From positions 2,974-66,973 of the IMG/VR virus record IMGVR_UViG_3300045974_000462: a stretch of DNA of 64,000 nt, one strand, 5' to 3'. Below, piece after piece: positions 12,218 through 39,825 of this stretch (positions are counted from its first letter, which is position 1; every line of letters starts with the position of its first letter). The position numbers and the translations under genes were made by a program. A model generated the notes under the pieces. It searched no databases. It saw only the letters and a list, made by a program, of their open reading frames with translations, and was not told the origin of the DNA. The stretch is from a virus.

Positions 12218-13573
12218 CTATATCCCGGCTCTTCTGTTTCGCTCCTCACGCTCCTTGGCTTGCGCGGCACGTTCGTCTGGCAGCGTGTCGTGTTCGCCTC
12301 TCTGGTAGACCTTGACCTCGTTGTTCGGCGAGTATGAGGACCATGCGGATTGTTCAAAATCTCCACCGACTCGCTGCTTGATGTCGTAGTGGTCCCTGTT
12401 AAACTTGATGTGCCGCTGCTCCGGTTCGTACTTGTCCTCGTTGGTGGTGATCTGGACTCTCGGCTTTCCTCCCGGCCATGCCTGGACGTAGACTCCGGCG
12501 TCGTGCATGCCGTATTCCTTCGCCACTTCGACCAGCTTGGTGGCGATCTCGTGCGCCTTGGCGTGCTGGTTCTTCCGAGCGCTCGCCAGTATTGTGTCGT
12601 AGTTTTTGGTATTCCTTGCGGTCGCGTCGGCGTCGTATCGCTCGGTTAGTCCATTCTGTTGGCCTCTTCCCCATGCGTTCGATAGGTCTCCGCTATGGTG
12701 CGGGTTCTTGTTTGCTCCGTGGCCGAGTATCCCGGCTCGTGTCCCGTTGGCCCATGCTTCGTCTTTGGTGGTGGCTACCGCAGCGGGTACTGGTTTCGGT
12801 GCTGGCGCTGTGGTAGGCATGACCGCGAGCGTTACCCAGACGTCTCCGCCTTTGGTGCTGCTTCCCCTCGGAGTCTTGAAAACTTTTGATGTGGTGTTTT
12901 TGCCGGACCCGGTGACGCGGATGTCGTATCCCTGCTCGGCAAACCAGTTGTGCATATCTCCATCGGGGCTCCATCGTTTTTTCAGGCTGTCATGCCTGTC
13001 GTTTCCTCCGTAGTAGTAGCTGTCATAAACCGTCAGGTTTCCCCCTGGGTCGACGGCGGTCCTACCGTTACCTCCGGCTTCGGTGTATCCGAAGTCTGAG
13101 GAGCGGAGCGCTGCTTGGACGGCGAGTGCCGACCTCTTGTCCGGCTTGACGAAGGCTGGCGTCGGTGAGGGCTCTGGCGTCGGCATGGGAGTAGGGTCTG
13201 GTACCGGGTCGGAGTATTTCGGTGGATGTGCCGTCCACTTCATCTCCCCTTTCTGGTGGCCTTCCAGCATCTCGATCTCGTGGAAGTGTCCGCCGTGCAT
13301 GTTCTCCGTGCGACCGGTGTGGCGGGCAGCGTCGCCGTTGATAAAGACCGTTGTTCCCTTCGGTCTGGCGAGCGGGACGTCCGGTGGCCTCGGGTTCTTC
13401 GCGGCGATAATGCTGCTGGTCCCGCTGCGATTGGTCCGGGTGTATCCGACGTGGTGGGGGTCGGCATTTCCGAAGAGGTCAAGTTGCGCCGGGTTGTGTG
13501 CCGCTCTCGCCTTCAGGAGTGCGACCGTGATGGCAGCGGCGTGGGATATGGCCTTCTGGAGTTGGTCGATCAT
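12218..13573 (-). CDS. Tagged putative internal head protein, 451 aa
   Basis: N-tag QLQKAISHAAAITVALLKA..QLDLFG..HHVGYTRTNRSGTSSI; Pro-rich linkers. Confidence 0.8.
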   Translation of the reverse strand: MIDQLQKAISHAAAITVALLKARAAHNPAQLDLFGNADPHHVGYTRTNRSGTSSIIAAKNPRPPDVPLARPKGTTVFINGDAARHTGRTENMHGGHFHEIEMLEGHQKGEMKWTAHPPKYSDPVPDPTPMPTPEPSPTPAFVKPDKRSALAVQAALRSSDFGYTEAGGNGRTAVDPGGNLTVYDSYYYGGNDRHDSLKKRWSPDGDMHNWFAEQGYDIRVTGSGKNTTSKVFKTPRGSSTKGGDVWVTLAVMPTTAPAPKPVPAAVATTKDEAWANGTRAGILGHGANKNPHHSGDLSNAWGRGQQNGLTERYDADATARNTKNYDTILASARKNQHAKAHEIATKLVEVAKEYGMHDAGVYVQAWPGGKPRVQITTNEDKYEPEQRHIKFNRDHYDIKQRVGGDFEQSAWSSYSPNNEVKVYQRGEHDTLPDERAAQAKEREERNRRAGI

Positions 13574-13597
13574 GGCTTATGGCTCCTCGTACCACGG

Positions 13598-14008
13598 TTA
13601 TTTGTTATTCCTGCGGGTTTCGATGTATTTAGTGCCGTGGTTTTCGCTGATTTCGTCGCGGGTATGCTGTTCTTTCCAATCCATGATGATCTTCTGGTTG
13701 TTTTCAAGCGTGCGCAGTTTCTCTATGACGACCTTGTGTTCTCCGTCGTAGAGCCCGACCTTCTCGTTGATGCTGTCGAGTTTGCCGTTTATCCCGTTGC
13801 CCATCATGACAATTATGGCGACTCCTGCCGCGAAAATCAGACCGTTAGATTTCATCCAGAATTTGTTGGTCTTCAGGGTGCTGATGGTGTCCATGTGATC
13901 TCTGCAGGCCGGGTGACTTGAGACTACATCATCTCCGTGCTCGTAGTTGTAATCGTTGAGGCCATTAGCATTGTCGTTATCGGATTTCCTGCGGTTGTGT
14001 GGCTCCAT
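13598..14008 (-). CDS. Single-TM membrane protein with coiled coil
   Basis: RRKSD N-terminus, TM LIFAAGVAIIVMM, GGAG RBS. Confidence 0.7.
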   Translation of the reverse strand: MEPHNRRKSDNDNANGLNDYNYEHGDDVVSSHPACRDHMDTISTLKTNKFWMKSNGLIFAAGVAIIVMMGNGINGKLDSINEKVGLYDGEHKVVIEKLRTLENNQKIIMDWKEQHTRDEISENHGTKYIETRRNNK

Positions 14009-14025
14009 GTTCGTATCTCCTCTTG

Positions 14026-14538
14026 CTATAGAATAACGGGTTTCCCCGGTGTGGCTTGTATTTTGGCTTTGAATTCCTGAAATGGTACGGTTTTGATGGT
14101 CCCGAAGAATCGCGGGTTATCGTAGTGCTTGTGGAATGCGGAGCGGGCCTCGGCGCTGCTCTGCATCCCCAGAAAGACCTTTTGCTCATCGATGCTCTTG
14201 AAGTCTGGCGCTTGCATGATGGTCACCACGTAGACGTTCGGGGCTTCCCGCCAAGGTCCGACAAAAACGTCTAGTTCGTCGCCGTCCATGCCGGTGACTC
14301 CCCTGATGTATCCGTAGGGTATGTGCATCCGGTGGGTGCCGCTGGTCCCGTCGTGCGGGTTGTGCCAGATTCGGTTCCGGCTGCGACCGACCTCGATGCT
14401 GACCGGGATGCCGTTGAAGTCGAGGCGTCCGTCGAGGGTCTTTGGCTGCACCAGCTTGGTGTCCATGCCGTGGCGGTCGACCTCGGCGGCGGCTCGGAGT
14501 TGTGCCTCGGTGAAAAGTGCCTTGACGAGCAGCTTCAT
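14026..14538 (-). CDS. Tagged inorganic pyrophosphatase-like protein (polyvalent-protein InPase family)
   Basis: MKLLVKA start, ATGA-coupled; PYGYIRGVTGMDGDELDVFVGP...DEQKVFLG. Confidence 0.8.
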   Translation of the reverse strand: MKLLVKALFTEAQLRAAAEVDRHGMDTKLVQPKTLDGRLDFNGIPVSIEVGRSRNRIWHNPHDGTSGTHRMHIPYGYIRGVTGMDGDELDVFVGPWREAPNVYVVTIMQAPDFKSIDEQKVFLGMQSSAEARSAFHKHYDNPRFFGTIKTVPFQEFKAKIQATPGKPVIL

Positions 14539-15047
14539 CGCCTTTGCCGTTTCCCGCCTGCTGACTGTGGATGCGCCTCGTGCTCGACAAGGTCGCGCTG
14601 ACCGTAGACGTCGGCGTAATGGTCGACCGTCCATTTGTCGAGGTGCGCGGCGCTGGCAAACGTCTTGCGCCATCGCTCCGGCTTGAGTCGGCTTCCCTCT
14701 CGTGTGCCGTGTGCCTCGATCCCGTAGTGGTCGTGGGGTATCGCTGGCGCTACCGTCCGGCTGATCTCATCGTACTCGTCATCGTTCAGCAGTCCCTCGT
14801 CGCGGGCGGCGTCGAGTTCCGGGCGGGTCACGTTGCTCCCGATATCGTGCCAGTTCTTCCGGGCGTGGTACTCGTCGTCGTTGAAGAGCCCATCCCTGTG
14901 TGCCTGCTCCAGCTCGCCTCGTGACAGGTTCGTCGGCGTCACCTTGTTGTCGTATTCGCGGCGGGTGACGGCGGTTCCTCTGGCGGTGGTGTAGTTGCTG
15001 CCGTGGACGTGGCTTTTGACCAGCAGGTACAGTCCGTTGCGTTTCAT
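14535..15047 (-). CDS. Tagged putative internal head protein with duplicated helical motif
   Basis: AGGAG RBS; YLLVKSHVHGSNYTTARGTAVTRREYDNK; ELxxAxxDGLxNDDEY occurs twice. Confidence 0.75.
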   Translation of the reverse strand: MKRNGLYLLVKSHVHGSNYTTARGTAVTRREYDNKVTPTNLSRGELEQAHRDGLFNDDEYHARKNWHDIGSNVTRPELDAARDEGLLNDDEYDEISRTVAPAIPHDHYGIEAHGTREGSRLKPERWRKTFASAAHLDKWTVDHYADVYGQRDLVEHEAHPQSAGGKRQRR

Positions 15048-17731
15048 CGTGGGGTCTCCTTGCGGCGTGGGTCCGGCAGGCGTAGCGACCTGAAAAGTGA
15101 GCCTTGAGCCCATCCGGCCCGGTCCGGCTTCTCGGTGAGCCCGGACGCGGCCAGTTCCTTGGTGTCGATATGGCGACCGGCTGCGAGTTCGGCTTTCTGT
15201 CGGGCTCGTGTTCGGGCGCTCAGTCCGTCCTCGATCTGGGCCTTGTCGGTCAGGTATGCATGGACTTGTGCCTCGGCCTCGACTACTTTCTGTCGGGTCG
15301 GCTCGTCCAGCTTGTTCCAGTGGGGCAGGTGTTCAAAGCGGTAGTGGCGGAGTTTGTGGAGGTCGTAGTGGTTGTTGGCGTGGGCGAGTTTATTCCCGTA
15401 TGACCGGACGCGGCTATCCTCGTGCTGCCTGACGAGGGTGACCGCTCCGGACGGGATGTTGCGGTAGAATTCGTGGACTAGGGCTTTCTTAAGTCCTAGT
15501 TTGGTGAGAATCCTTCCGGCAATGCTCCGGGGTCCGGCTCCTTGCTCTTTGGTACTGCGGTCTTGGGTTTTAGGGTAGTAGTCTTGGCCGGTGCAGGTTT
15601 CCCCGCTGGAGCAGGTACCGGTGCGGGTGTCGGGGCGTTGGCAGCATCCTGGAGCGCCATCTGCTTTTCGGAGATAGCTATGGCGTCCATGAGGATGCTG
15701 CGTTTCTTCGCGTAAAGTTCTTTCTGCTTCTGTTCGTCGGCCATATGTGCCTCCTGATTTGATAAGTTGCGTCAGGTATCTTACCGATTTTTCAGCGTTA
15801 TCGCTACTCTTTAATTTCGCAAACGCTCCGGTGACTACCTGCTTCTTGTCCTTTGGCTGGTATGGCGTAGCGAAGAAGTCCTCTTGATCGACTTCCTTGG
15901 TGCGGTTGACGATCTCGTTGTGTATGGCCTGCGCGATGGACCCGAGCATGGTGCCGAGTTTGTCGGCGCTCCCGACGTGCTTCTCGATGGCCAGTGCAAA
16001 TTCCTTACCGTAGTCCGTGGCGAATCCCTGTTGATTGCGGTCCGTTCCGTCTCCTCCCAGACCCATGTCGCTCTGTTGAAACATTTGGGAGATGGTGCTG
16101 TTGCCGTTGCGGGCCCGGATGACGTTGCGTATGGCCTCTGTCATGTCAGGTATCACGTTGAATTCGTCGTTTCCATGAAGTTTGGCAAAATGGCCGACTG
16201 CGTTATTGAGCCCACCGATGATCCGCTTCATCCCGCTGTTGGCGCTCTCGGCCATCTGCTTGATCAGTGGTAAGTCTTGATAAATTTTGGCGAAAATTGC
16301 GGACTGTATCCGTTCTGCGCATTGCTTGTTCGGGGTGCCGTTTTCGTCTACGAGACCATCGGCCTCGTTGCGGCCTATCTTCGCAAAAAATCCCTGAATG
16401 AAGGGCAGGCTCGATTGCGCTTCAACATCAAATTCCCCGTCTTCGTTCGGGTTGAATTTGGCGAGCAGGGCGTCGTCTATCCGTCCTCCGTCCACGACTG
16501 CCTGTTGCGTCGGGCTCTCCTTTTTCTGCATTGGTACGTTGGCCTCGTGGGCGAAATTGGCGCGGTTGACTCCCTCCTGTGGCTCCCTGACCCGGACGAT
16601 CATCGGCATCTTCATGCCTTCGGCGGCTGCGGGGTCGATCCCGAATTCCTGCTGTGCGTTCTCGGTGATCCAGTCCTTGTATTCCTTCGCCTTGTCAGGG
16701 TTGGTCTCGTAGGCCATTTTGATTGCCAGAGACCGACCGTTTCCGCTCTCGACCATTCCGTCCTTGCCGACTATGGGCGATCCGTCTGACGCGAGCGGGT
16801 TCTTGCCAAATAACTCAGGCTCCAGCTTGTTCGCCAGTTTGACAATCTGCATCCGGCTGGCGACAGACGATCGGTCTCGGGGCTGGAGTTCGCTCGGGTA
16901 GTCGGTGTTTTCCGCTCCCTCTGCGCTGTGGCTGGTGGTCAAGCTGTCGCCGTCGACGAGGGCGTACTGCACCGGGTACTTCCCGAGGGTGTGGGTGATC
17001 GCGTTGGCCTTGTGTCCGAAGACGAACGTGGGCGCGGCTTTCTTTCCAGAGGAGAACTGCTCCTTCTTTCGCTCCGTCAGGTCGACGGCTCCCTTGATTT
17101 TGCGGTCCGGGTCGCCTCCTGCGGCCTCGACGGTTCCGTCCTTGCCGAGAATAACTTGGTGGCCGTTCTTCTCCATGACCGTGTGTTGTTCGGAGTCGTC
17201 GGCCTCGTGTCCGAAGTGCTTTAGGAGTTTCGTGCGATAGTCGTCTTCGGCCTGGGTATACAGGTTGCTCCGCGAGGTCTTGAATGCCTTTAGGTGGGCG
17301 ACGGGGTCGTCTCCTCCTGTCGCTGTGTGCATTGCCTTTATCTTGGTATTGGAGGTTTTGCGGGCGTCGTTGGTCTTGTTACGCTCCGTCTCGGGATAAA
17401 GGTTTGACTCAAAGTCTGGCCGGTCCTTGGCTTTACCTTCCGGGAGGTCTTTGTTGCGCTTGATGGCTGACTGCTCGCGCTTCTGCCATCCGGAGTCGGT
17501 CAGGTGCTGGAGGAGTTCGGCGTGGTGCGCCAGCTTATTGCCGGGGGAGACTTCTTCGCCGTGGCGGCGCTCGTGGGCGACGAGGTCAGGGTGCTTTATC
17601 ACCTTATTGTCGTGCTCCCTGACCAGAGTCCCGTCTTGACGGGTGTACTGGTGGATATGGCTTTTGGTCAGGGAATCAAAAAAAAAAGGTGCTTCCCCTG
17701 AAGCGGGCCTCCATTTGTCACGGCTACCCAT
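15044..17731 (-). CDS. Large tagged protein with DdrB-like ParB domain; start uncertain, possibly a frameshift fusion to the upstream sigma-like gene
   Basis: LTKSHIHQYTRQDGTLVREHDNK tag; YALVDGDSLTTSH...ELQPRDRS...DGSPIVGKDGMVESGNGRSLA; second tag LKKALVHEFYRNIPSGAVTLVRQHEDSR. Confidence 0.75.
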   Translation of the reverse strand: MGSRDKWRPASGEAPFFFDSLTKSHIHQYTRQDGTLVREHDNKVIKHPDLVAHERRHGEEVSPGNKLAHHAELLQHLTDSGWQKREQSAIKRNKDLPEGKAKDRPDFESNLYPETERNKTNDARKTSNTKIKAMHTATGGDDPVAHLKAFKTSRSNLYTQAEDDYRTKLLKHFGHEADDSEQHTVMEKNGHQVILGKDGTVEAAGGDPDRKIKGAVDLTERKKEQFSSGKKAAPTFVFGHKANAITHTLGKYPVQYALVDGDSLTTSHSAEGAENTDYPSELQPRDRSSVASRMQIVKLANKLEPELFGKNPLASDGSPIVGKDGMVESGNGRSLAIKMAYETNPDKAKEYKDWITENAQQEFGIDPAAAEGMKMPMIVRVREPQEGVNRANFAHEANVPMQKKESPTQQAVVDGGRIDDALLAKFNPNEDGEFDVEAQSSLPFIQGFFAKIGRNEADGLVDENGTPNKQCAERIQSAIFAKIYQDLPLIKQMAESANSGMKRIIGGLNNAVGHFAKLHGNDEFNVIPDMTEAIRNVIRARNGNSTISQMFQQSDMGLGGDGTDRNQQGFATDYGKEFALAIEKHVGSADKLGTMLGSIAQAIHNEIVNRTKEVDQEDFFATPYQPKDKKQVVTGAFAKLKSSDNAEKSVRYLTQLIKSGGTYGRRTEAERTLREETQHPHGRHSYLRKADGAPGCCQRPDTRTGTCSSGETCTGQDYYPKTQDRSTKEQGAGPRSIAGRILTKLGLKKALVHEFYRNIPSGAVTLVRQHEDSRVRSYGNKLAHANNHYDLHKLRHYRFEHLPHWNKLDEPTRQKVVEAEAQVHAYLTDKAQIEDGLSARTRARQKAELAAGRHIDTKELAASGLTEKPDRAGWAQGSLFRSLRLPDPRRKETPR
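15496..15744 (-). CDS. 82-aa Pro/Ala/Lys-rich ORF nested out of frame in the DdrB-like ORF
   Basis: Strong AGGAGG RBS; MADEQKQKELY... Confidence 0.5.
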   Translation of the reverse strand: MADEQKQKELYAKKRSILMDAIAISEKQMALQDAANAPTPAPVPAPAGKPAPAKTTTLKPKTAVPKSKEPDPGALPEGFSPN

Positions 17732-19029
17732 TGGCCTTCGGGGTGGAGATCATCGAGGCGCTCTCCCTGTCGGCTCTTTCTGAATTCCTCGGTGCAGAGA
17801 AAAACCCGGCGACCGTCGATGGTCTTGACCTGTGGCCGGTTCTTCCGGGCCTTCTGCAGCGTCCGGAGTTCCTGTATCGACCGGAGGAGGTCGTGCAGTT
17901 GCGCGACGCCTTTGTTCTGCCCGAGTTCTTCCAGCAGGTTCATGACGCGGCGGTGGGCGAGGCGGTCGTTCCATTCGTAGTCGTAGTTTTTGGCGGTGAC
18001 GTAGGGTACTCCCATCTCGTTCATGGCGTCGGCCAGTTCCCGGTATGTGTGCTCCTCGTGTGGCGCGAGTCCGAATCTGCGGTATATGATGTCTTGGTTG
18101 ACGGGATCGAGGTCGTCAATGGCGGCATTGATCCGCTCCGCTATCAGCTTCTCTTCCTGTGCCTTCTCGTAGAGGGATTGCGGGGTGTTCTCGTCGGCGA
18201 TGTTGTCGAGGGGGTCGGTGTCGCCGTCATCATCGTCGTGAAGGAGTGGGTCGCGGAGTTCCTTGCGGATATCGGTCAGGCGCTTGACGTCGGCGAGGGC
18301 GACCGTCTTCGCTTCTCGGTTCATGGCGACAAAAATGCGGGAGTTTGGTCGACCTTTGATCGAGACGGCTTCGGGGTCTTTGAGCCATGCGTCGTAATGG
18401 TCGAGGTCTTCTTTAAAGGCGGAGATGTCCTCTTCGGTGGCGGTGGCGGCTTCCCGGCGCAGGGAGTTCATTATTCCGATGGTGGCCTCGGCGTCGAGGT
18501 TGTCCCAATCGTCAGACTCGCGGTCGATGCTGTTGGTCCCGGCGTAGTTGGCGACGACGGCTCGCTTCATGTTCTGGATCTTGGGGTGCATCAAGATAGC
18601 GCCTTCCGTCATCCCCATCCGGACCGGGATGCTCTCGGCTCGCTCGTTGGAGACGGTGGCAGTCAGGCGGCGTCCCTTGGTGCTGGTCGTTTCCATGTTC
18701 GGGTTGGTGGCATATTTGTAGGCTTGGTTCTCGGAGTGTTCCTCTGGTGTCCAGATCATGTCCTCGTGGATATGGTGCTGTGGTCTCTGGCGGGTGCCTC
18801 TGAGCATCTTGCCTTGCACCACGAAGTGCTCCGCCATGTGGCTGTCATGGACAATGGTTCCCCTGCGGGCCTTTGGTGACCCGGCCACTTTATAAAAAAC
18901 GTCTTGGCCGGGGCTAAACTTCTGACCGACGTGGATCATGGCTCCGGTGATCGGATTGCGGCGATTGTATGCGACGTGACCGCGTTCTCCTGTGGTGGCG
19001 AGTGCTCCGGATTTTACCATAAGCAACAT
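17668..19029 (-). CDS. Sigma70-family-like factor carrying the N-terminal head tag
   Basis: MLLMVKS..GHVAYNRRNPITG tag; region 2-like DNLDAEATIGIMNSLRR; region 3-4-like DPLDNIADENTP...AAIDDLDPVNQDIIYRRFGL..EEHTYRELA; GGAGG RBS. Confidence 0.75.
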   Translation of the reverse strand: MLLMVKSGALATTGERGHVAYNRRNPITGAMIHVGQKFSPGQDVFYKVAGSPKARRGTIVHDSHMAEHFVVQGKMLRGTRQRPQHHIHEDMIWTPEEHSENQAYKYATNPNMETTSTKGRRLTATVSNERAESIPVRMGMTEGAILMHPKIQNMKRAVVANYAGTNSIDRESDDWDNLDAEATIGIMNSLRREAATATEEDISAFKEDLDHYDAWLKDPEAVSIKGRPNSRIFVAMNREAKTVALADVKRLTDIRKELRDPLLHDDDDGDTDPLDNIADENTPQSLYEKAQEEKLIAERINAAIDDLDPVNQDIIYRRFGLAPHEEHTYRELADAMNEMGVPYVTAKNYDYEWNDRLAHRRVMNLLEELGQNKGVAQLHDLLRSIQELRTLQKARKNRPQVKTIDGRRVFLCTEEFRKSRQGERLDDLHPEGQWVAVTNGGPLQGKHLFFLIP

Positions 19030-30061: not shown

Positions 30062-31075
30062 TTACTGGTTGTCGTAGAGCATCTTCCTGACCTCGTCCAC
30101 TACGGTCTCCGCGCCATCCCGTCCATTAAAAAGCAGTCTTCTCGCGTCGTCGAGGCGTTCCGATCCCTGCGTGAATACCTGTTTATCCTTCCCGCTCATC
30201 GTGGCTGCGGCTTGCTCCATCCTGCGCGAGATGTCGGTGAGTTTCTGTCGTACGGCGTCTGCATCGTGAAACTGCAGGCTCGACAGGTCTCCTCGGATGT
30301 CCCGGTGGATCTGCTCCCTGTTGGCGGTAGTCGTTGGCGTCATCCCTCTCGCCAGTTCATGCATTTTCGCTATGGCGCTGTGGGCCTCCATTTTGTACCG
30401 GTGGCGGTCCGCCGTGGCGTAGTTCCCGGCCATTTCCGCATTGTCGGCCTTATGCTCGTAGACGCTCGACTGTGACCAATGGTGCGCCTCTGCTGCGGCG
30501 TGGTCGGCTTTGTCCCATCCTAGCGATCCGAAATGGTTAGCGACTGCTTGGCCGTGGGCTCTCGTGACGTTGCCTCGGTCGGGGTCGCCGTCTGAGTTGT
30601 GCGTCGACTCGATGTCGTATGCCGAGTGCGAAATCGCGGGCGTGGTATCGGCGGAGAACTTTGCGGGTTGTTCCACTTGCCGGTTGATGGTGGTCCGTGG
30701 TTTCCGTGGCGGCTTCATTCTGCCAGCTATGGCGTAGTGGTGCATCGCGGCTTCGCTATGGGCGTTTGGGTCGCTGGCGTCTCCGCTGTTACCGAATGCT
30801 TTTTGATGGGCTCTGAAGGCGTCGATGTGGTCCTGGTGGGTTCCGCTGTAGTTCGCCTTGCGGGTTGCCTCGTTTGCGGCTGCGGCGTCTGCCGACAGTG
30901 GGGCTCTCCCTCTGGCTGCGACGGTGCTCACGTGACCGCTCTGGTTGGTCCTGGTGTATGCGACGTGGTGGGGCTCGGGCGATCCACCGAATAACGACAG
31001 TTGCTCGCTCTTTTTCAGCAGCTCGACCGCTGCTCCTGCGGCCTGCTGGATTGCCTTGTTTAGTTCCGTGGTCAT
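30062..31075 (-). CDS. Tagged His/Ala-rich putative internal head protein
   Basis: ELNKAIQQAAGAAVELLKKSEQLSLFGG..HHVAYTRTNQSGHVSTVAARG. Confidence 0.8.
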   Translation of the reverse strand: MTTELNKAIQQAAGAAVELLKKSEQLSLFGGSPEPHHVAYTRTNQSGHVSTVAARGRAPLSADAAAANEATRKANYSGTHQDHIDAFRAHQKAFGNSGDASDPNAHSEAAMHHYAIAGRMKPPRKPRTTINRQVEQPAKFSADTTPAISHSAYDIESTHNSDGDPDRGNVTRAHGQAVANHFGSLGWDKADHAAAEAHHWSQSSVYEHKADNAEMAGNYATADRHRYKMEAHSAIAKMHELARGMTPTTTANREQIHRDIRGDLSSLQFHDADAVRQKLTDISRRMEQAAATMSGKDKQVFTQGSERLDDARRLLFNGRDGAETVVDEVRKMLYDNQ

Positions 31076-32262
31076 GGTCCTTTCCTCCTGAGTAGTAGTG
31101 CGGCAAACGCCTTGACCAGCTTGCGCCAGAGCACTCGGTTGCGTTTCGGGTCAAACTTCATTCTGTCCGCGATGTAACCGGTAACCACGGAGTAATAACT
31201 TCCGCTGGCGTCCTTCCTGGCCTCCACGACGTGGATCTTCTGCCTGCCGTCGTGCTCCGAAACGAGCGCGATCCGGTTACCGTCGAGGGCGTATATGACG
31301 TTAAAATTGGCGAGCACGTCGGCGACAAAGGCTTGCTCATCGGGGTATCCTGCGGCCTTGATTTCCGCTCCGTGCTGCTGCCGGATGTGCTCCAGTCCGA
31401 ATCCGCGATGATCGTCGATCTGCTTGCCTTGGGTCAGGCGGATCGTGGTCGCTCCCATCTTCTTGGCGACCTCGGGCGGTATCTGGTAGTCGTGGACCGG
31501 GGCGTCGGGGTTACTGCGGGTCTCTGGCTTTCTGTTGCCTCCCAAGACAACGATCTCGGTTTCGATGATGTTGCCATGTCCTGTTGCCGGGGTGCTGAAG
31601 ATGTAGCGTGCAGGGATGTCTGCCTCGACCACTTCTCCGCCTGCCTCCTGTCTTACCCAGCTATCGTCAAGAGCCCAGCAGGAGAAGGTCTTGTCCTCTG
31701 CCATCCCGCCTTTGCGGTGCGCGTGGACGCTGGTGATGCCTCGCTCCTTGAGCCACTCCTGCGTGGTGTCGTAAATAGTCGATCCTAACGAGTGGAGGCA
31801 GCGGGTGATTCCCTCTTTTCCGTTGTCCTTGCACCATTGTTCGATTCTTGCGGCCTTGTCGTATTCGGGGGTATTGAGTCCGGCGTGTCTGGCGGCGTAG
31901 TTCATTATCACGCTGTTCTCGTTACCTCCGGCGCTTCCGGTGTGCTCTTTAAGCAGTTGGTAGATGACTGCCTCTTTGCGGTATTCGGTGCTCGCTTCCG
32001 GCTTGAATTTATAACCGCTGTATGCGGTGTACTCATCGAGGTCTTTGCGGTCAACGTCCCACCGTGCTGCCACTTTTTGTGCGGTCTTTTCTATGTGTCC
32101 GTACATCGACAGGTCATGTCCGTCCTTCAGGTCGTGCTTGGTGAGGGTGCGCGTCTCGGGTTTTCGCTGGCGGCGGTCGTCGTAGGCGCGGACGGTGCCG
32201 CTGGCTCCGGAGGCGTAGTGGCGCTCGTGCTGGTCGACGTGGGACTTTATAAGCAGGCGCAT
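31072..32262 (-). CDS. Tagged polyvalent protein: ADP-ribosyltransferase-like domain plus PBECR-like RNase
   Basis: MRLLIKSHVDQHERHYASG tag; HR..FSCW..IPARYIFST..TG.G..ETEIVVLG (R-S-E); IRLTQG..GFGLEHIRQQH...YYSVVTGY. Confidence 0.7.
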   Translation of the reverse strand: MRLLIKSHVDQHERHYASGASGTVRAYDDRRQRKPETRTLTKHDLKDGHDLSMYGHIEKTAQKVAARWDVDRKDLDEYTAYSGYKFKPEASTEYRKEAVIYQLLKEHTGSAGGNENSVIMNYAARHAGLNTPEYDKAARIEQWCKDNGKEGITRCLHSLGSTIYDTTQEWLKERGITSVHAHRKGGMAEDKTFSCWALDDSWVRQEAGGEVVEADIPARYIFSTPATGHGNIIETEIVVLGGNRKPETRSNPDAPVHDYQIPPEVAKKMGATTIRLTQGKQIDDHRGFGLEHIRQQHGAEIKAAGYPDEQAFVADVLANFNVIYALDGNRIALVSEHDGRQKIHVVEARKDASGSYYSVVTGYIADRMKFDPKRNRVLWRKLVKAFAALLLRRKGP

Positions 32263-33125
32263 AGGGTTTGCTCCTTCGCGGCTCTTATCTTCCTTCTCCG
32301 TTCGCGGTTGTATTCAACCATTTTCGCGTACTGCTCCGGTTGCTCTATCTTAATTTTCTGGAATGCGACCTTTTTCTTGGCGAGTATGGCGTCCCTTGTC
32401 TTGGCTCGGTACTGCTTTCGGTATTCTGTGAATCGTTCCTTGTTTTGCGAGTCGTACTCTTTTTTCTTGTCGGGATTTTCTTTTCTCCGTTTTTTTGCTC
32501 CATCTCTGTTGCGCTTTTTCCTTCGTTCTTCCCTGAACTGGTCGTCGACCTGCTGGAGTCCTTCTTTCCTGAAACCCGAGACTTGGTTGATTCCGAGTTC
32601 CTTTTCGGTCAAAACTACATAAACGATTCCCTTCTCTTTCAGGTGTTCTCTGGCAACTTCGTATTTTGCTGTATTCGCTGCGTGGTCTCTTGACCATGCT
32701 GGCTTGATTTCTTCTATCGTTATCCCTGTGGACCGGTTGACGGTGAAGTCTGGGATGTACTTCTTCCCGTTCGGCATGGGTATTGGATCGACTGTTCGTG
32801 TCCACGAAATGACGCTTTCGTCGGCGTCCAGTTGCTGCATCCTGACCAATTCGTATGAGGACATTCCATGTTCCCATTTGCCGGTTTTGGTGGATTGCCA
32901 CCATCCTCCGTTTCCGTGGTAGACTCCCGTTGGCCTCTGCTTGTATGTGGGTACGGCTCTTGCTTCGGAGTGGGTTCGCGTTGCTCCGAATTTATCTAAT
33001 CTGGAATAAATGACTCTCTTGGTAACTCCTAGCCTTTGAGAAATTGCTGATGGTGGCATTTTCTCGTCTCGGTATAATCTTATTATTTCTGCGACTACGT
33101 CGTTACTGGTTGTGTTGGTTCCCAT
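32247..33125 (-). mobile_element. Free-standing TnsA-N-like PD-(D/E)XK homing endonuclease with HTH and basic coiled coil
   Basis: SSYELVRMQQLD..YIPDF..IEEIKP; lower GC; overlaps both neighbours. Confidence 0.7.
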
Positions 33126-34321
33126 CCGTGCGCTCCTGCTATGTACTCTCTCACTGGACTACAGCCACACCAAGGGTGCAATGGGCCTGCTGTCGCTTTA
33201 AGTGTTTCTTGGCCGTCCGGTCTTTCTGTTGAGTGTACCTTTCCGCTCCGTGTCGGCATCGGCTTGCGTCCTATGTTATTACCGTTCAATATTAAATCTT
33301 TAAGCCTGAACAGTCTAGGAGTTTGTCCGTCTGCTTCTAACAGTAAATGCTTGCATTGGGCGCAGGCTGTTGGCAGCGGTCTCCTGAAAACTAAGGCGTC
33401 CGGTCCGATGATTCGCATGAGTTCGTGGGCGTGGCCTTGCTTCGTTGCGCTGTTTATTTCAAAAAAAGCCACTCGCTGCCAGTCCCTCGCCTTGTCGTCC
33501 ATCGCGTGGTAAAGTTCGGAGGATAGCTGCTGCCAGTTCGTGATCGGCAGGTCCAGTATCTCCTCGCCGAGTTCCTGCTTCTCTTCCCGGTCAAGGACGC
33601 GGCGGGTCAGGGTCCGCTGGTGGTAGTCGACTGCCATCTGGCGGACGGTGTCGGCCTGCCGTTGAGCCCACTTCTGTCCGACCTCGGTCGCGATGTCATT
33701 GCCGAAGTTCTGAATGTAGAGCCCGGTCTCCCTCTCCGCGACCGCTATGGCGTCGAGGTCCGGCTTCAGTAGCGGCATCTCCTTGCTCAACCGGAGGACG
33801 TCGTGGTATGTCTCCCCTCGCTCGACGGCGTCCCAGAGTCGGCCAAAAATAAACGCGTTCCGGATCAGGTAGGCGTCGGGTCCGGCGACGATCTCCGCAA
33901 AGTTCAGCGGCGTGGTCTCCGGGGGGCATAGTCCCATGTCCTTCCATCGCTGGAGCGTCGGATCGTCCGGCTGGTAGTCCGTCTGCATCTGGCCTGCCAT
34001 GAAGTCGAAGCGGTCCTTGATGGTCTGGAGGACGTCGCGGATCTGGCTGGCGGTCAGGATCACCGACTTCCGCAGGTGGCGACCGGTGCCGACTATCTGG
34101 CGGAGGTCGTCCATTGCTTCCCGGTATCGCTGCTGAAACTGGTAGAAAAGACCGGCGACGGCAGGCTCGCGGGGCTCCTTCGGTTCGTCGTCGCAGGCGC
34201 AGGCTTTGAGGAGTTGACCGGCGACGTCCGGTCCGATGCCGCTGGCGTCAGCGAGTCGGGCGAGTGCCTTGGTCAACTCCTCGGGGCTCAGGTTGTGGTG
34301 TATCGATGCCTTCATGGTCAC
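33095..34321 (-). CDS. MuF/SPP1 gp7-like minor head protein
   Basis: RDWQRVAFFEI, ACAQCKHL, GPLHPWCGC signature. Confidence 0.8.
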   Translation of the reverse strand: MTMKASIHHNLSPEELTKALARLADASGIGPDVAGQLLKACACDDEPKEPREPAVAGLFYQFQQRYREAMDDLRQIVGTGRHLRKSVILTASQIRDVLQTIKDRFDFMAGQMQTDYQPDDPTLQRWKDMGLCPPETTPLNFAEIVAGPDAYLIRNAFIFGRLWDAVERGETYHDVLRLSKEMPLLKPDLDAIAVAERETGLYIQNFGNDIATEVGQKWAQRQADTVRQMAVDYHQRTLTRRVLDREEKQELGEEILDLPITNWQQLSSELYHAMDDKARDWQRVAFFEINSATKQGHAHELMRIIGPDALVFRRPLPTACAQCKHLLLEADGQTPRLFRLKDLILNGNNIGRKPMPTRSGKVHSTERPDGQETLKATAGPLHPWCGCSPVREYIAGAHGWEPTQPVTT

Positions 34322-35397
34322 CTTCTTGCTTGGTGTCGGTGCTGGTTGACCTTCGTTCCGTGGTACTCGTGCTCTTTCTCCAGTCCCTCGTCCTCGGCCA
34401 TCATCCCTGCTTCCTCGTGTGCCGATTCCGCATCCTTATGGTGACCGATCTGCCCGGTCCTGTTCGCCTTGGTAGATAGGGCGTCAGCGGATTTTCTGGC
34501 CGACTGGTATTCCGGTGATCCTGTCTGGCCTTCCTGCTTCGCGATATCCTTTCCGAGCGAGGCGTCCGCCTTGGCCTGATGCTCCTTGGCTTTGACCTTG
34601 TGATCCGCTTCGCCTTCGGAGTCGTAGTCAAGGTGCGCGGCGATGGAGTGCAGGCGGCTGGCCTTTTCGTGGTCGTCCTTTGACCCACTCTTGTTCGCCT
34701 TGGCGCTGGCGGAGTAGGCTTCGTCGCGGGCTTTTGTGGATATCCTGGTGATCCGCTGGACCTCGGCTCCGTGCTCCAGTGCCATCTTGCGGTGGTGTTG
34801 TGCGTGTGTTACCGCTGCGTCAGCCATGTGCTCCGGTCCATCATTGGCGAGTTCCTTGGCGTGATGTTCTGCTCGTTGGTGCTGTTCCATTGCGAGCAGG
34901 TGCATCCCGCTGGCTCTGTTGAGATCCTGTGAGTTATCGAGTTTTTTGTGGCTGGCGTTGTATGCGTGACTGGTCAGGTTGTCTGCGGCAATAGTGGCAC
35001 TGTTGGAATTCTGCACCAGTTTTCCGTCCCTGGCGTAGTTGTGCAGGGACGCGATCGCGCCAAGGTGGCGGCTGGCGGCATGGAGGTGGTTCGATATGTC
35101 ACTGTTGTCTGTTGCCATGTTTGCGGCTTCGACGTGGGAGAATGCGGCGTGGTGGTGCTGTCCTGCTGCTCCCCTTATCTCCTTGCTCGGGGCGTCTCCA
35201 CTGAAAGCGTGGCGGCTGGCGCGGTCGGCGTTTACGGATGCTTCTTGCGATGATTTCCGCTTGTCGTCATAGGCGCGGACCTGGGAGACGGCTCCGGATG
35301 CCGAGTGGCGCTCGTGCTCTTTAACGTGGCTCTTGGCGAGGTTGGCGGAGGCGAATCCCGCGAGGGCAATGGCTTTGACTAGGCTGTCGGTGTTCAT
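34318..35397 (-). CDS. Tagged His/Ala-rich repeat protein
   Basis: LVKAIALAGFASANLAKSHVKEHERHSASGAVSQVRAYDDKR; HxxAxxxHxxA repeats. Confidence 0.8.
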   Translation of the reverse strand: MNTDSLVKAIALAGFASANLAKSHVKEHERHSASGAVSQVRAYDDKRKSSQEASVNADRASRHAFSGDAPSKEIRGAAGQHHHAAFSHVEAANMATDNSDISNHLHAASRHLGAIASLHNYARDGKLVQNSNSATIAADNLTSHAYNASHKKLDNSQDLNRASGMHLLAMEQHQRAEHHAKELANDGPEHMADAAVTHAQHHRKMALEHGAEVQRITRISTKARDEAYSASAKANKSGSKDDHEKASRLHSIAAHLDYDSEGEADHKVKAKEHQAKADASLGKDIAKQEGQTGSPEYQSARKSADALSTKANRTGQIGHHKDAESAHEEAGMMAEDEGLEKEHEYHGTKVNQHRHQARR

Positions 35398-35399: not shown

Positions 35400-35855
35400 T
35401 TATCTCCTGTACTTGGTGTTGGCGTGTCGCATCGCATGGTCGTCATGGTGGTCGATCATGTCCTCCATTGCGTCTCTGTCTTCGCCGTGGACATTTTGCA
35501 GGTCGTCCCTGAATGCTTCGGAGGCGTGCGCGTGTATTTTGGACGCGGCGTGGTGCGCTTCTTCCTTGCGTTGCCGGATGGCGTTGTCTGTTGCCTTGTC
35601 GGCCATTTCGCTCATGTTGCCGGAATGGTCCCGCTCGCCGTCCTTGTTGGACTCCATCCGGTCGATGTGCTGGAGTGCTGCGTGGTTGTTGCCTGCGTTG
35701 AGGCAGGCGTTAGCGGCTCTCCGGCTGTCCTCGTATTCCTTGCGGTTGACCGTGGTCCCGCTGGCGTTGGTGTAGGTGGTAGCCTTTACGTGGCTCTTGA
35801 TCAAGCTGGCGGTGGCGCGGGCGGCGTGGTCGATGGCTTTCTGCAGGTCGTTCAT
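35400..35855 (-). CDS. Tagged small His-rich protein
   Basis: DLQKAIDHAARATASLIKSHVKATTYTNASGTTVNRKEYEDSRR. Confidence 0.8.
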   Translation of the reverse strand: MNDLQKAIDHAARATASLIKSHVKATTYTNASGTTVNRKEYEDSRRAANACLNAGNNHAALQHIDRMESNKDGERDHSGNMSEMADKATDNAIRQRKEEAHHAASKIHAHASEAFRDDLQNVHGEDRDAMEDMIDHHDDHAMRHANTKYRR

Positions 35856-35867: not shown

Positions 35868-37067
35868 TTATCGGGGGATCATGTCGTCGGAGACGAAGAA
35901 TATGGTGGTTGGTTCGATGGACGAGTCTTCGATGCGGATGCCGCTCCCGGCGATCTCGTCCATAAGTCCGGGGGCTATTCGTTGGAAGGCTTCCCGCTGC
36001 CGCTGTATGGTGAGCCCGGTCATGGTGGGGCGTCCGCCAATGGAGAGCGCTTCTCCCCTTCCGCCTCGCTCGGCTTTGTAGCCAATGGTGACCATGTTGT
36101 GGTCGTGGCGGACGGTCAGTTGCAGGGGCTCCGTCGATCCGTTCCCGGCTATGAAGGCAAGGGTACCGTATTCCCGCTTGACGATGTCCGCTATCAGTCC
36201 CTTCGGGTCGCCGAGGTGGCGCTGGCCGAGGCTGGTCATTTCGTCAGCCAGATTGGCTCCGGCTCGCTCGGATTCCTCGTTGGCGTTGTGGTATGCGGAG
36301 TCTAGGCAGTCATCGCAAAACTGACCGTAGAAGGTGTCGCCTGCGTTGTCTGCGTCGCTGGCGGTCCTGACCGGGGCGTCGGCTCCGCAGTGCTCGCATT
36401 GCCCGTCTTCGGTCTCGAATTCGTTGTAGTCGAAGTTCCCGTCATTGATGAGGCGGGTCATGGTTGCGAGTTTCGTCTCGCCTCCGTCGTTCACCAGTCC
36501 CTGCCATCGCGGGTTGGTCTTATTGCCAAACTTCGCGATCTCCTTCGGTCCGTGGAGTTCGTACTTTTCCGTGCGCGAGTTGGGGTTCAAGCGGTGGATG
36601 AAGACTCCGCCTTCTTTGCCGGGGAGCAGTTCGTCTCCTGGCTTCATGTTCCTCTTCGCGGTCCCGGCTGACTTGTATGGCTGCATCCCCTTGGCGGCGA
36701 TCTGGCTGACCGCTCCCGATTGCGTCCTGCGGGAGTAGGCGGTGTGGTGAAATGCTGCCTTTTCCCGGTGGTATTCGGCCTCGTTGTGCTGGCCTGCGGA
36801 GACCGCGAGGTCTGCGGCCTTCTGGTGAAGGTCTCGGGCTCGCTTGTGCTCCTCTGCCGGTCGTTCTCCCCTGCGGCCTGTTGCCACCAGCAGATCGCTT
36901 GCCTCTTGCGCGATGTTGCTGGCGTCCTTGGCGGCGCGACCTATTGAGTGGTTCGGGCTATGGATGCTGTCGGTCGGGAATTCAAACCCGAGTTGCGTGC
37001 TTTTCTTCAGCAGTTCGACCGCCGCGTCCGCTGCCTGCTGGATCGCTTTGTTCAGTTCTTCGCTCAT
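35868..37067 (-). CDS. Tagged putative internal head protein with CxxC Zn module
   Basis: ELNKAIQQAADAAVELLKKSTQLGFEF...HHTAYSRRTQSG; CEHC..CDDC. Confidence 0.8.
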   Translation of the reverse strand: MSEELNKAIQQAADAAVELLKKSTQLGFEFPTDSIHSPNHSIGRAAKDASNIAQEASDLLVATGRRGERPAEEHKRARDLHQKAADLAVSAGQHNEAEYHREKAAFHHTAYSRRTQSGAVSQIAAKGMQPYKSAGTAKRNMKPGDELLPGKEGGVFIHRLNPNSRTEKYELHGPKEIAKFGNKTNPRWQGLVNDGGETKLATMTRLINDGNFDYNEFETEDGQCEHCGADAPVRTASDADNAGDTFYGQFCDDCLDSAYHNANEESERAGANLADEMTSLGQRHLGDPKGLIADIVKREYGTLAFIAGNGSTEPLQLTVRHDHNMVTIGYKAERGGRGEALSIGGRPTMTGLTIQRQREAFQRIAPGLMDEIAGSGIRIEDSSIEPTTIFFVSDDMIPR

Positions 37068-37157: not shown

Positions 37158-37463
37158 TTAACAGACCGATCCTGCCGGTTGCTGGTCGAGGCCATTGTCG
37201 TATGGCAGGTCCGGGTCGTCTTCGATGTCCACAAACGTGACGTCTGTCTCCGGGCTCTGCTTCAGGTTCATGGCGGCGCAGTGTAAGTCCGAGGGTGCAG
37301 CGTTGTTGCCGATAAGGTGTCCGAAGGCTCCGTATGCCGTGGCGAGCCAGTCGCGGGCGATGTCGGCTCCGGGTCCGGTGATCTCAAACGGTCCGAGTCG
37401 GTTCCATTGCTGGTGGGTATGGACGATCGCTTTTCCTGCGGGGGTGGCGACGGTTATGGTCAT
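37158..37463 (-). CDS. Untagged hypothetical protein, possible immunity/partner
   Basis: ATGA-coupled to the zincin gene; AYGAFGHLIG..PSDLH. Confidence 0.7.
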   Translation of the reverse strand: MTITVATPAGKAIVHTHQQWNRLGPFEITGPGADIARDWLATAYGAFGHLIGNNAAPSDLHCAAMNLKQSPETDVTFVDIEDDPDLPYDNGLDQQPAGSVC

Positions 37464-38662
37464 TTGCGGCTCCTCGTTTTCTTGGGTTTTTTAACCGGCT
37501 TGGTCTGGATGTAGTGGATCATCCCGAGCATGAAGTGGAAGTGTTCCGGGTCGTCTTGGGCGAAGCGGGTCAAACCGTAGCGCGAGGAGAATTGCTGCAT
37601 CCCCATCGAGACGACCTCGCTGTAATGCCTGCCATAATCCTTGCCGACGTATGGGCTCACAAAATTGTCTACCCATGCCGACTCGCCATCCTTGTAATTG
37701 CTGCCGGGGACCAGTTCCTTCAGCGGCTTCAGTTCGATATTGTTTCTGCCGGTGGTCGCCTTGTAGTGACGACGGCAGCGGTCGATTACGAAATCGCAGG
37801 ATGCCTCAGTGATCTCCGGGTGGCTCATCTCGATGTGGTGTCCCATCTCGTGCATGATGGTATTGTCGGCTGTTCTCCGGTTCATGGTAAACCATCCAGC
37901 AGGGTTGGCACTGGCTCGCTCGCCTTCGACAAGGTCGTCCTTGATGAATTTGAGGGTCGGAGTCTTGTCGGTGCCGATGATTTGGTAAAACTTTGTGATG
38001 GCTTGTTCCTGGTTGCTGTCGAGGCCGATCATCATGTCTTTGGTCAGTTGGTCCTTGGCGTCTGCGGCCTCGTAGAATGGCGTCTGTTCCTGCAGGTGCT
38101 TCAGTATGCTGTGGTAGGAGTTGTTTATCTCTTGCTCGACTCTGATCCGTGATGCGGCAGATAGTCGCTCTCTCATGTCCAGTTCGTCGTTGGCGGCGGT
38201 TATTATCCGGTGCGATGCTCCCTTGTCGTACAGTTTTGTAACCTTGGCCTTTGCCGACTCGTAGTCCTTCTTGAATGCCTCATAGGCGTCGAGTGCCGCT
38301 GCGACCTTTGGTGCCATGAATTCCAGCACGGCTTTGCCGTTGTTGACGAGGATCTTGTGCTTGGGCTCCGCGAGTTTGGTCGGCCTTCCGCTCGTTGCGT
38401 CTCGCATCCACTTGGCTGTCGGCAGCGGCGTCAGCTTGAGTTCCGTTATGGTCTTGGGCTTCGGCGGTGGAGGGGGTGGAGGGGGTGGAGGCAGCGGTCG
38501 GGAGAAGTCGAGACCGAGTTGGTGAGCGTGCGGGTTGCCGCGTTGTGCTATCCGGCTGGCGGTGCCTCTCTGGTTGGTCCGGGTGTAGCTGATATGGTTC
38601 GGTCGGCTGGTCCCGAAGTTAAACCCGAGTTGCTCGCTCTTGAGCAGAAGGTAGCGGATCAT
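37460..38662 (-). CDS. Tagged zincin metallopeptidase (MPTase-like)
   Basis: MIRYLLLKSEQLGFNF tag; HEMGH, SPYVGK, SEVVSMG. Confidence 0.85.
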   Translation of the reverse strand: MIRYLLLKSEQLGFNFGTSRPNHISYTRTNQRGTASRIAQRGNPHAHQLGLDFSRPLPPPPPPPPPPKPKTITELKLTPLPTAKWMRDATSGRPTKLAEPKHKILVNNGKAVLEFMAPKVAAALDAYEAFKKDYESAKAKVTKLYDKGASHRIITAANDELDMRERLSAASRIRVEQEINNSYHSILKHLQEQTPFYEAADAKDQLTKDMMIGLDSNQEQAITKFYQIIGTDKTPTLKFIKDDLVEGERASANPAGWFTMNRRTADNTIMHEMGHHIEMSHPEITEASCDFVIDRCRRHYKATTGRNNIELKPLKELVPGSNYKDGESAWVDNFVSPYVGKDYGRHYSEVVSMGMQQFSSRYGLTRFAQDDPEHFHFMLGMIHYIQTKPVKKPKKTRSRK

Positions 38663-38673
38663 GGTGGCCTCTG

Positions 38674-39825
38674 TCAGTATCGGTTGCGCCGGGGTGGTGG
38701 GGCGTCCGGTTTGTTCTTGAGGTGGTGGAGCATCCCGATTATGAAGTGGGCGTGTTCCGGGTCTTTGTCGAGCAGTTTGATAAAGTCGTTATGTTTGCCG
38801 AGGTGCTGCATCCCCATCGAGACGACCTCAGTGCTGCCGTCTGAGTAAAACTTGCCGACGTATGGGCTGACGAATTTGTCCGTCATGGCTCGCTCGTCGG
38901 CATCGTACCTGCTGCCGGGGACTATCTCCTTTAGCGGTTTCAGGCTGGTGCTGCCTCCCTTGCGCTCGCACTTGCTGTACCTGAATTGCGCGGCGGCTCG
39001 CTCGACCTCGGGGTGGGAGAATTCTATGTGGTGCGCTATCTCGTGGATGACCGTGGTGCGGTTGGCCTTCTCGTCCAGCTTGATGTATCCGGTAGGGCTA
39101 GCGCAGGCTCTAAAGTCTTTACCCATGCTCTCGGTCCATCGGTATGTGGGCGTCTTTCCGGTACCGACCATCGCGTAAAAGTCGCCGATGGCCTTCTGCT
39201 GCTCCCTGTTCTTCAGTCCTCCGCCTGTGACCTCTTTCGCCTTCGTGCGGCATCGCTCTATGTCGTTGCCTTCCTGCAGCCATGCGATGACCTTTTCGTA
39301 CTCGTCTTTTCCGGAGTCGCGCTGTGCTTTGAGGTGATCGTCCAGCATTCGGTCGTGTTCCATGCTAAGTCGCTTGACCTCAGGATGTGCCGCCAGGATG
39401 TCCTGGTATCCGGTGTGGTCGGGGTGCTCCTTCGCTGCTTCCTTGTATGCCGTGGAGTACCTCAGGTATGCGTCGTGTCGCTCCTGCTTCAGCTTATCCT
39501 TGTGTGCTTGGCGGTCCTTGGCGGTCCGGCCACCAGTAAGCAGTTCCAGTATGTTTCTGCCGTTGTCGATGAATCCCTGAAAGCTGGAATCCTCGCGGAC
39601 CACGTCGGCGATAGTCTTCTGCTTCGGTGGCGGCGGTGGCGCTGGCCGGGAGAAGTCGAGGCCGAGTTGCTGTGGCTTCGGCGCTCCCCTCTGGGCGACA
39701 ATGGAGACCGTGCCTCGGGAGTTGACGCGGCGGTATCCGACGTGGTGCGGGTTCGGGTTGGTACCTCCGGTGCCGAAGTCGAAGAGTCCCGGTTGCGTGC
39801 TCTTGATGAGCAGAAAGCGGATCAT
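38674..39825 (-). CDS. Tagged zincin metallopeptidase, paralogue of the previous gene
   Basis: MIRFLLIKSTQPGLFDF tag; HEIAH, SPYVGK, TEVVSMG. Confidence 0.85.
   Translation of the reverse strand: MIRFLLIKSTQPGLFDFGTGGTNPNPHHVGYRRVNSRGTVSIVAQRGAPKPQQLGLDFSRPAPPPPPKQKTIADVVREDSSFQGFIDNGRNILELLTGGRTAKDRQAHKDKLKQERHDAYLRYSTAYKEAAKEHPDHTGYQDILAAHPEVKRLSMEHDRMLDDHLKAQRDSGKDEYEKVIAWLQEGNDIERCRTKAKEVTGGGLKNREQQKAIGDFYAMVGTGKTPTYRWTESMGKDFRACASPTGYIKLDEKANRTTVIHEIAHHIEFSHPEVERAAAQFRYSKCERKGGSTSLKPLKEIVPGSRYDADERAMTDKFVSPYVGKFYSDGSTEVVSMGMQHLGKHNDFIKLLDKDPEHAHFIIGMLHHLKNKPDAPPPRRNRY

Follow-up and report, generated by a model that had tools for sequence, protein, structure and literature searches.

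What is the partner of a short glutamine-led motif that recurs just behind the predicted cleavage site of putative virion cargo proteins in an uncultured phage? The question arises from a 64-kb stretch (hereafter the window; positions 2,974 to 66,973 of record IMGVR_UViG_3300045974_000462) of a 69-kb IMG/VR virus record that is estimated to be 79% complete. In the window a dozen minus-strand genes lie between the head genes and the portal gene, and 12 cargo proteins begin with an N-terminal leader that ends in L-x-K↓S/A, where the arrow marks the predicted cut. An initial annotation had read the glutamine-led peptides of this region (Q motifs) as ligands of the bacterial beta sliding clamp, DnaN, which would bring injected effectors to host replisomes or inhibit these. 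From sequence comparison, the copies of Q-[LM]-x-[LF]-(D)-F represent one conserved motif in a region predicted to be disordered, and together with a hairpin, HHV[AG]YTRTNxSGTxSxIxxKG, they form what we call the class I N-terminal module. Docking of the motif on the DnaN of the host is the best single candidate for its role, a reading that we hold tentatively.

A six-frame scan recovered all eight Q motifs of the initial annotation, every one of them on the minus strand (Table 1), and the proteins that bear them are indeed tagged, with a leader ending in a site that also occurs in the capsid protein (at residue 11), the scaffold (six times) and the head protease (several times). The motif had been described as often standing 2-8 residues after the K-S/A step. 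This fits five copies, found at 2-9 residues (K-K-S-E-QLSLF, K-K-S-T-QLGFEF, L-K-S-E-QLGFNF, I-K-S-T-QPGLFDF and L-L-K-A-(7 residues)-QLDLF), but both QLGLDF copies lie about 45 residues past the cleavage site, just ahead of a poly-proline linker, and QGSLF is not behind a site at all, since its counterparts in two homologues (QARLF in P0082 and QQMMF in P0105, within GW-x-Q-x-x-[LM]-F) lie upstream of the next K↓S site. When the 32 minus-strand proteins were shuffled 2000 times, no shuffle reached the observed number of QLxLF or QLxLxF peptides (4 against 0.12 expected) or that of the looser family pattern Q..[LF].?F (11 against 2.26 expected). The window copies are paralogous, four of them having the DNA start CAACTCGG in common, and independent support therefore comes from the wider family.

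Table 1. Positions in the window of the Q motifs, the hairpins, and the cargo, head and other genes discussed in the text.
Feature	Coordinates	Strand	Remarks
QLDLF	13472-13486	minus	residues 30-34 of 451-amino-acid tagged cargo (12218-13573), 9 residues past LLK↓A
H1 hairpin of 451-amino-acid protein	13397-13459	minus	PHHVGYTRTNRSGTSSIIAAK
QGSLF	15092-15106	minus	895-amino-acid open reading frame (15044-17731), 20 residues before its end
QLSLF	30989-31003	minus	residues 25-29 of 337-amino-acid tagged cargo (30062-31075), after LLKK↓SE
H1 hairpin of 337-amino-acid protein	30908-30973	minus	PHHVAYTRTNQSGHVSTVAARG
QLGFEF	36978-36995	minus	399-amino-acid tagged cargo (35868-37067), after LLKK↓ST
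QLGFNF, first Q motif	38615-38632	minus	zincin-like cargo 37460-38662, after LLLK↓SE
Hairpin of zincin-like cargo 37460-38662	38537-38602	minus	
QLGLDF, second Q motif of 37460-38662	38504-38521	minus	between hairpin and poly-Pro linker
QPGLFDF, first Q motif	39775-39795	minus	zincin-like cargo 38674-39825, after LLIK↓ST
H1 hairpin of 38674-39825	39685-39750	minus	
QLGLDF, second Q motif of 38674-39825	39652-39669	minus	
QPLFDF	56183-56200	minus	residues 3-8 of untagged 110-amino-acid winged-helix-like protein (55874-56206), phrog_27658
Class II tagged cargo gene	31072-32262	minus	no Q motif
Class II tagged cargo gene	34318-35397	minus	no Q motif
Class II tagged cargo gene	35400-35855	minus	no Q motif
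Gene with class II N-terminus	14535-15113	minus	
Gene with class II N-terminus	15044-17731	minus	
HTH_23 and TnsA-like endonuclease gene	32247-33125	minus	untagged, amid class II cargo
MuF-like gene	33095-34321	minus	amid class II cargo
Major head protein, SU10 type	4663-6093	minus	Pfam; phrog_752
Scaffold-like protein	6138-6800	minus	
Head maturation protease	6778-7695	minus	presumed enzyme for L-x-K↓S/A sites; phrog_1028, E 5.6e-37
Portal	39828-41573	minus	Pfam and PHROG matches
Large terminase	49908-51503	minus	
DnaC/IstB-like helicase loader	60393-61316		

The leaders come in two forms, one of about 20 residues with a predicted helix (L-x-K-A-I-x-x-A-A...L-L-K-K↓S) and a short one (M-x-x-L-L-x-K↓S). 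With the tag site defined as [LIVMF][LIVMT]K(K/R)[SA], 18 head and cargo proteins contain 27 copies (4.2 expected), 16 of these within the first 40 residues (0.40 expected), and 14 other minus-strand proteins show no enrichment. In the internal proteins and Alt of T4 and in the Dar cargo of P1, N-terminal leaders address the prohead and are cut by the prohead protease at the consensus of the capsid and scaffold proteins; the cargo then leaves the virion along with the DNA to act on the host. The window cargo is alike in that its leader ends in the capsid and scaffold site and in that a prohead protease is encoded. Given the enrichment in head and cargo proteins and the analogy with T4 capsid-targeting sequences, cleavage at L-x-K↓S/A by the prohead protease is a well-founded inference, and we infer that the tagged proteins are encapsidated and ejected. 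One cargo protein with an InPase domain matches PHROGs annotated as minor head protein, virion structural protein and DarB-like antirestriction protein. Unlike T4, where the site is L/I-x-E, the site here is L-x-K↓S/A in a podophage-like setting with an SU10-type capsid protein, and in contrast to both the T4 and the P1 systems the mature protein is predicted to keep the Q motif and the hairpin. As the leader site recurs in capsid, scaffold and protease, a cut after the helical leader during head maturation would place the motif 1-2 residues behind the new N-terminus. The portal has L-x-K↓S/A sites close to both of its ends; at the C-terminus of this portal and of those of three related loci (L002, L039 and L040), a site of the K↓S/A type precedes a conserved tail, K-F-L-x-I-T-[LIV]. 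The head protease may trim the portal as well.

A search profile built from five window modules was run against 1.84 billion representative proteins and matched 94 of them at E ≤0.001 and 29 at E ≤1e-10; all of the family proteins that were looked up are metagenomic, and the motif-bearing family amounts to about 80 protein clusters. Its consensus reads L-x-K-A-I-E-x-A-A...L-K-K↓S-Q-M-[SA]-[FL]-D-F-x(3-12)-P-H-H-V-A-Y-T-R-T-N-A-S-G-T-V-S-N-I-x-A-K-G, where the second conserved element after the Q motif, which we named H1, has the general form P-H-H-V-[AG]-Y-T-R-T-N-x-S-G-T-x-S-x-I-x-x-K-G. The Q motif is present in 77 of the 84 members from outside the window, as 22 pentamers (QMSLF 10, QLSLF 5, QLGLF 2, QLDLF 1 and others) and 55 hexamers (Q-M-[ASG]-[FL]-D-F, with Phe in 38 and Leu in 16 at the fourth position); the other seven have the hairpin alone. 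Among the 66 members that could be aligned, Gln is found in 66/66, the final Phe in 61/61 and the Asp of the hexamers in 47/50, and the His, Tyr, Arg and Gly of the hairpin are invariant. The linker between Q motif and H1 ranges in the same members from 3 to 57 residues (median 6) with no conserved sequence. Indeed, Gln and Phe are invariant over clusters separated at 50% identity, where the neighbouring linker varies freely. Constant Gln, Phe and hairpin residues around a linker of variable length and sequence are the hallmark of short linear motifs within disordered stretches, and the objection foreseen in the initial annotation, that homologues might not conserve the motif, is not borne out.

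The family also informs on individual window copies. QLDLF is retained in P0028, the orthologue of the 451-amino-acid protein, a search with the 337-amino-acid QLSLF protein returned no homologue besides itself, and in the 399-amino-acid protein an H1-like motif follows about 75 residues beyond QLGFEF. Second copies past the hairpin (QGVLDF, QGALDF, QGTLDF or QPELDF) occur in P0074, P0087, P0106, P0112, P0117 and P0082, a subfamily made up of relatives of the zincin-like proteins of the window. In long polyproteins the module always stands immediately after an internal K↓S site.

Since the motif adjoins the site, it might have no partner of its own and either extend the substrate context that the prohead protease recognizes or have been inherited as part of a shuffled leader cassette. 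The DNA start common to window copies does indicate common descent or gene conversion, and cargo cassettes turn over: a close relative, L001, whose portal is 92% identical, is without both zincin-like genes and the 399-amino-acid QLGFEF gene, and of the zincin-like gene at 38674-39825 it keeps only a 48-amino-acid remnant open reading frame that comprises the leader, QPGLFDF and the beginning of the hairpin (L001:3586-3891, plus strand; P0064). Loss or exchange of cargo genes takes place at module boundaries. However, the sites of the capsid, scaffold and class II proteins (tagged cargo with no Q motif, see below) have no Gln motif, the distance from Gln to the scissile bond varies (P2' in the family, P3' in the window and P10' in the 451-amino-acid protein), second copies lie far from any site, and Gln and Phe stay invariant across 50%-identity clusters next to a variable linker. 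We therefore consider a motif without a partner very improbable. As a protease subsite in particular, the motif was rejected on account of its variable distance to the scissile bond and its absence from the capsid and scaffold sites.

Structure prediction points in the same direction as the alignment. In an AlphaFold2 model of the 66-residue module, made with the family alignment, only the hairpin folds (strands 30-34 and 40-44, predicted local distance difference test score, pLDDT, about 86), and both Q motifs are low-confidence coil, the first with a pLDDT of 53-57 and no secondary structure. The full-length model of the zincin-like protein 38674-39825 (mean pLDDT 86.9) has the hairpin strands at 29-34 and 40-45 and a folded domain at 72-370, with residues 1-25 below 50 and the second motif at about 60. 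Because both models leave the Q motifs unstructured, these are predicted to belong neither to the hairpin mini-domain nor to the enzyme fold, and to be disordered outside both. The idea that the Q motif is a strand of the hairpin mini-domain was rejected, as AlphaFold gave no packing and the linker runs from 3 to 57 residues. As for the enzyme itself, H-E-x-x-H-x-x-E of the zincin-like paralogues is nearly invariant among homologues, and a Foldseek search with the model returned weak metallopeptidase rows alone (E above 0.8).

How well does such a motif fit the clamp? Natural clamp-binding motifs follow Q-aliphatic-x-[L/M]-[F/L] or Q-aliphatic-x-[L/M]-x-[F/L] and are located in disordered N- or C-termini or in loops; the best binders are QLxLF and QLxLxF, with 5-mers and 6-mers binding equally well (PMC11139829). 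QLDLF is the strongest known clamp peptide, LQLELDF was selected in phage display, and ligands include GQLGLF in Pol II, SEQVELEFD at the C-terminus of Pol III alpha and PAQLSLPLYL in Hda; position 4 of natural ligands is Leu or Met only, and Phe there gave weaker inhibition in E. coli peptide assays (PMC11139829). The claim that the window copies are canonical clamp motifs stands for part of them: the published consensus is matched by 4 of the 7 window copies behind a site (QLDLF, QLSLF and QLGLDF twice) and by 38 of the 77 family copies (all 22 pentamers but one, and 17 hexamers), but not by the half of the family that has Phe at position 4. Position by position, Gln comes first in all eight window copies and Phe comes last (position 5 or 6) in every one; position 2 is Leu in 6/7 window copies behind a site (Pro in QPGLF) and Met or Leu in about 70 of the 77 family copies; and position 4 is Leu or Met in QLDLF, QLSLF, both QLGLDF, QPGLF, the 22 family pentamers and 17 hexamers. 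Overall the match in architecture is good (Gln, terminal Phe, interchange of 5-mers and 6-mers, Asp before the last Phe, a disordered terminus), with half of the family imperfect at one key position.

The likeness to bacterial clamp motifs (Dalrymple QL[SD]LF; PMC11139829) thus extends to the invariant Gln, a hydrophobic position 2, a free position 3, Leu followed by Phe, the two interchangeable lengths and the disordered terminus, and QLDLF, QLSLF and QLGLF match proven ligands or consensus peptides residue for residue. The bacterial motifs differ in being carried by replication and repair enzymes, whereas here they are found on cargo that is predicted to be packaged in the capsid and processed by a protease. 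A phage precedent is MuC of phage Mu, which binds DnaN via QHDLF and QPDLF, both conserved in the Mor/C family (PMC12867686). The clamp is thus used by phage proteins that are not part of the replisome, in some cases through two motifs. MuC and its family have further points in common with the window proteins (one motif at the extreme N-terminus, Pro tolerated at position 2, conservation in the family), but MuC is a transcription factor that is made during infection and neither has a leader nor is cleaved, and in its case binding to DnaN has been demonstrated experimentally (PMC12867686). Literature searches found no relevant report of clamp motifs on virion or polyvalent proteins.

On this basis, the motif would dock after ejection in the hydrophobic pocket of the host beta clamp and so tether a subset of the delivered proteins to clamp-loaded DNA; the zincin-like proteins, with two copies each, could engage both pockets of the clamp dimer. 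Several points speak against such docking. Phe occupies position 4 in QLGFEF, QLGFNF and 38 of the 55 family hexamers, and Met, not the optimal Leu, prevails at position 2 of the family, whose profile matches are moreover partly biased toward motif-carrying sequences. For the carrier domains (zincin-like and of unknown fold) no task at the clamp is evident, a virion probably holds few copies relative to the clamps in a cell, and the phage seems to depend on the host replisome, having a DnaC-like loader. Finally, the motif stands nearly always directly after the cleavage site (1-2 residues) and is coupled to the H1 hairpin, an arrangement that would suit a partner within the virion too.

These last features, along with the departures from the clamp optimum at positions 2 and 4, would agree with a role in which the Q motif and H1 bind a head component (portal, core, scaffold or inner capsid surface) and position or order the class I cargo, either to retain it or to let it leave through the portal; the resemblance to clamp ligands would then be coincidental. 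All cargo classes have hairpins of the same type, and the module is limited to one phage lineage, with no match to any Pfam, NCBIfam, functionally annotated PHROG or PDB entry (the PDB having been searched by sequence with the module profile). On the other side, 7 of the 12 tagged cargo proteins have no Q motif. Several of these, our class II, have a hairpin of the form S-H-V-x-x-[HY]-x-R-x-x-x-S-G-x-x-x-x-V directly after K↓S, followed by an acidic-basic motif (AYDDKR, EYEDSR or EHDNKV, and EHEDSR in relatives; pattern [AE]Y[DE]D[SKR]R), and relatives carry both cargo classes side by side. The acidic-basic element never co-occurs with the Q motif. With 7/12 tagged proteins lacking it, the motif is dispensable for packaging, which weakens the alternative that it serves packaging only; it is not a packaging signal, nor is it needed in general for capsid exit. 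A partner in the head would also leave to be explained the second copies about 45 residues from the site, the several motif variants within one phage, and a similar motif at the head of an untagged, non-virion protein. On balance we regard this role as only a little less likely than docking on the clamp.

The untagged protein just mentioned has 110 amino acids and begins M-T-QPLFDF, close to the QPGLFDF of the cargo, and its gene adjoins a ParB-methylase gene. Homologues from Xanthomonas and Pseudanabaena phages start with QPEFDW, QANFDR or QIEMDF, and once with TDLFAF; in Xanthomonas phage Tabio the gene of the homologue adjoins one annotated 'Primosomal protein I'. By its sequence, the window protein may belong to the replication module and bind the clamp through its N-terminal QPLFDF, and the occurrence of a like motif on a non-virion protein would lend weak support to a host partner over one in the head. 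Against this, the Gln is not invariant among the homologues, and that N-terminus could be structural. The peptide RHVGYTR at the C-terminus of the same protein was considered as a homologue of H1 and rejected, since it fits a winged-helix wing strand and its profile match is weak (E 0.04).

A host partner need not be the clamp. A disordered, conserved linear motif that is kept on the mature protein and is dispensable for packaging could also dock on another hub after ejection, such as a chaperone, a protease adaptor, RNA polymerase or an envelope component, and Phe at position 4 with a near-invariant Asp at position 5 would suggest a pocket that differs from that of E. coli beta. However, several copies are identical to proven clamp ligands, and we know of no other bacterial hub that recognizes an invariant Gln with this hydrophobic pattern in interchangeable 5-mers and 6-mers. 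We consider a different hub improbable for these reasons, and because no other known hub recognizes such a pattern, docking on the clamp ranks as the best single candidate.

If the clamp is bound, the consequence is more plausibly tethering than inhibition. The phage encodes a DnaC/IstB-like loader, and neither dnaN (or any other clamp gene) nor a DNA polymerase gene was found in the 69-kb record, itself an estimated 79% of the genome, so that the phage probably uses the replisome of the host; blocking clamps would then harm the phage itself, and the localization half of the proposal made in the initial annotation is to be preferred to its inhibition half, which we consider unlikely. Gp168 of phage Twort, which is reported to block the DNA channel of the clamp (PMC8565349), is a phage protein aimed at the host beta clamp, but it is an early gene product and not virion cargo.

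The cargo genes themselves code for ddrB-ParB (E 1.7e-32) and InPase (E 1.3e-26) domains and for the two paralogous zincin-like proteins, whose domain homologues are often fused to Phage_Mu_F. Judged by domain matches, this set corresponds to the polyvalent-protein domain repertoire, placed beside head genes. The same cargo exists either as separate genes or as one polyprotein, since the 1614-amino-acid P0082 is collinear with the sigma-like (17668-19029), ddrB-ParB (15044-17731), 14535-type and zincin-like genes and has an internal K↓S site and a module at each junction. Within the window, the 895-amino-acid open reading frame has internal sites as well (LIK↓S at about residue 656, and LKK↓A ahead of a second hairpin), and P0055 and P0077 are further polyprotein relatives. 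In P0055 (778 amino acids), HTH_23 and TnsA-like domains follow a class II tag and precede a class I module inside the tagged polyprotein. Polyvalent proteins of phages and conjugative elements were reportedly described by Iyer, Aravind and co-workers in 2017. The present cargo resembles them in its ddrB-ParB and InPase domains, in the zincin-like peptidase that relatives have fused to MuF, and in the P0082 polyprotein, and differs in that most domains are separate genes in this phage, each with its own leader and module.

The motif-bearing cargo belongs to an uncultured podophage lineage. We found no close cultured phage, the identity of the capsid protein being at most 25% to any, and no more than five related loci came from scans of IMG/VR. 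When 185,579 species genomes were scanned with the profile, no prophage copy of the module, and hence no clue to the host, was obtained. A degenerate DNA pattern of the module, searched in metagenomes, gave 32 matches, six of them true and the rest mostly chance, and for the two proteins of unknown function that bear a Q motif, nothing usable came from the ESM Atlas.

Elsewhere in the window, positions 1-4000 have a G+C content of 44%, against 54-60% in the remainder, and contain a fibre protein (3324-3935) resembling gp80 of podophage GP4 and the end of an open reading frame of more than 1042 amino acids; this part is probably a recently acquired host-recognition module. From 4000 to 58000 the AT skew of the plus strand is uniformly strong (-0.25 to -0.45), the minus coding strand having A in excess of T to a degree that is unusual at 57% G+C. 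At 47225-47905 (minus strand) lies an unusual phage gene, the product of which may affect host transcription.

Little is known about how injected phage proteins find their targets in the first seconds of infection, and a conserved motif that is kept on mature cargo gives a concrete hypothesis. The module of leader, K↓S site, Q motif and hairpin, of which we found no description in the libraries and literature searched, marks cargo genes of metagenomic phages. Should it bind a head component after all, leader, Q motif and hairpin would make up a new two-part code for addressing cargo, of possible use for loading foreign proteins into capsids. Slightly more doubtful than clamp docking as such is the fuller proposal that some effectors, among them the two metallopeptidase-like proteins with two motifs each, are packed in advance with clamp-binding peptides that become N-terminal upon head maturation, are delivered with the DNA and dock at once, with the class II hairpin and its EHEDSR-type motif serving as a second, clamp-independent address code; if it is true, this would be the first virion-borne cargo addressed to a replisome hub. 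If binding to DnaN holds, the sliding clamp would join the hubs that are exploited by virion-delivered effectors, and cargo made before infection would be added to the phage 'clamp clients' such as Mu MuC and T4 gp33 and gp55.

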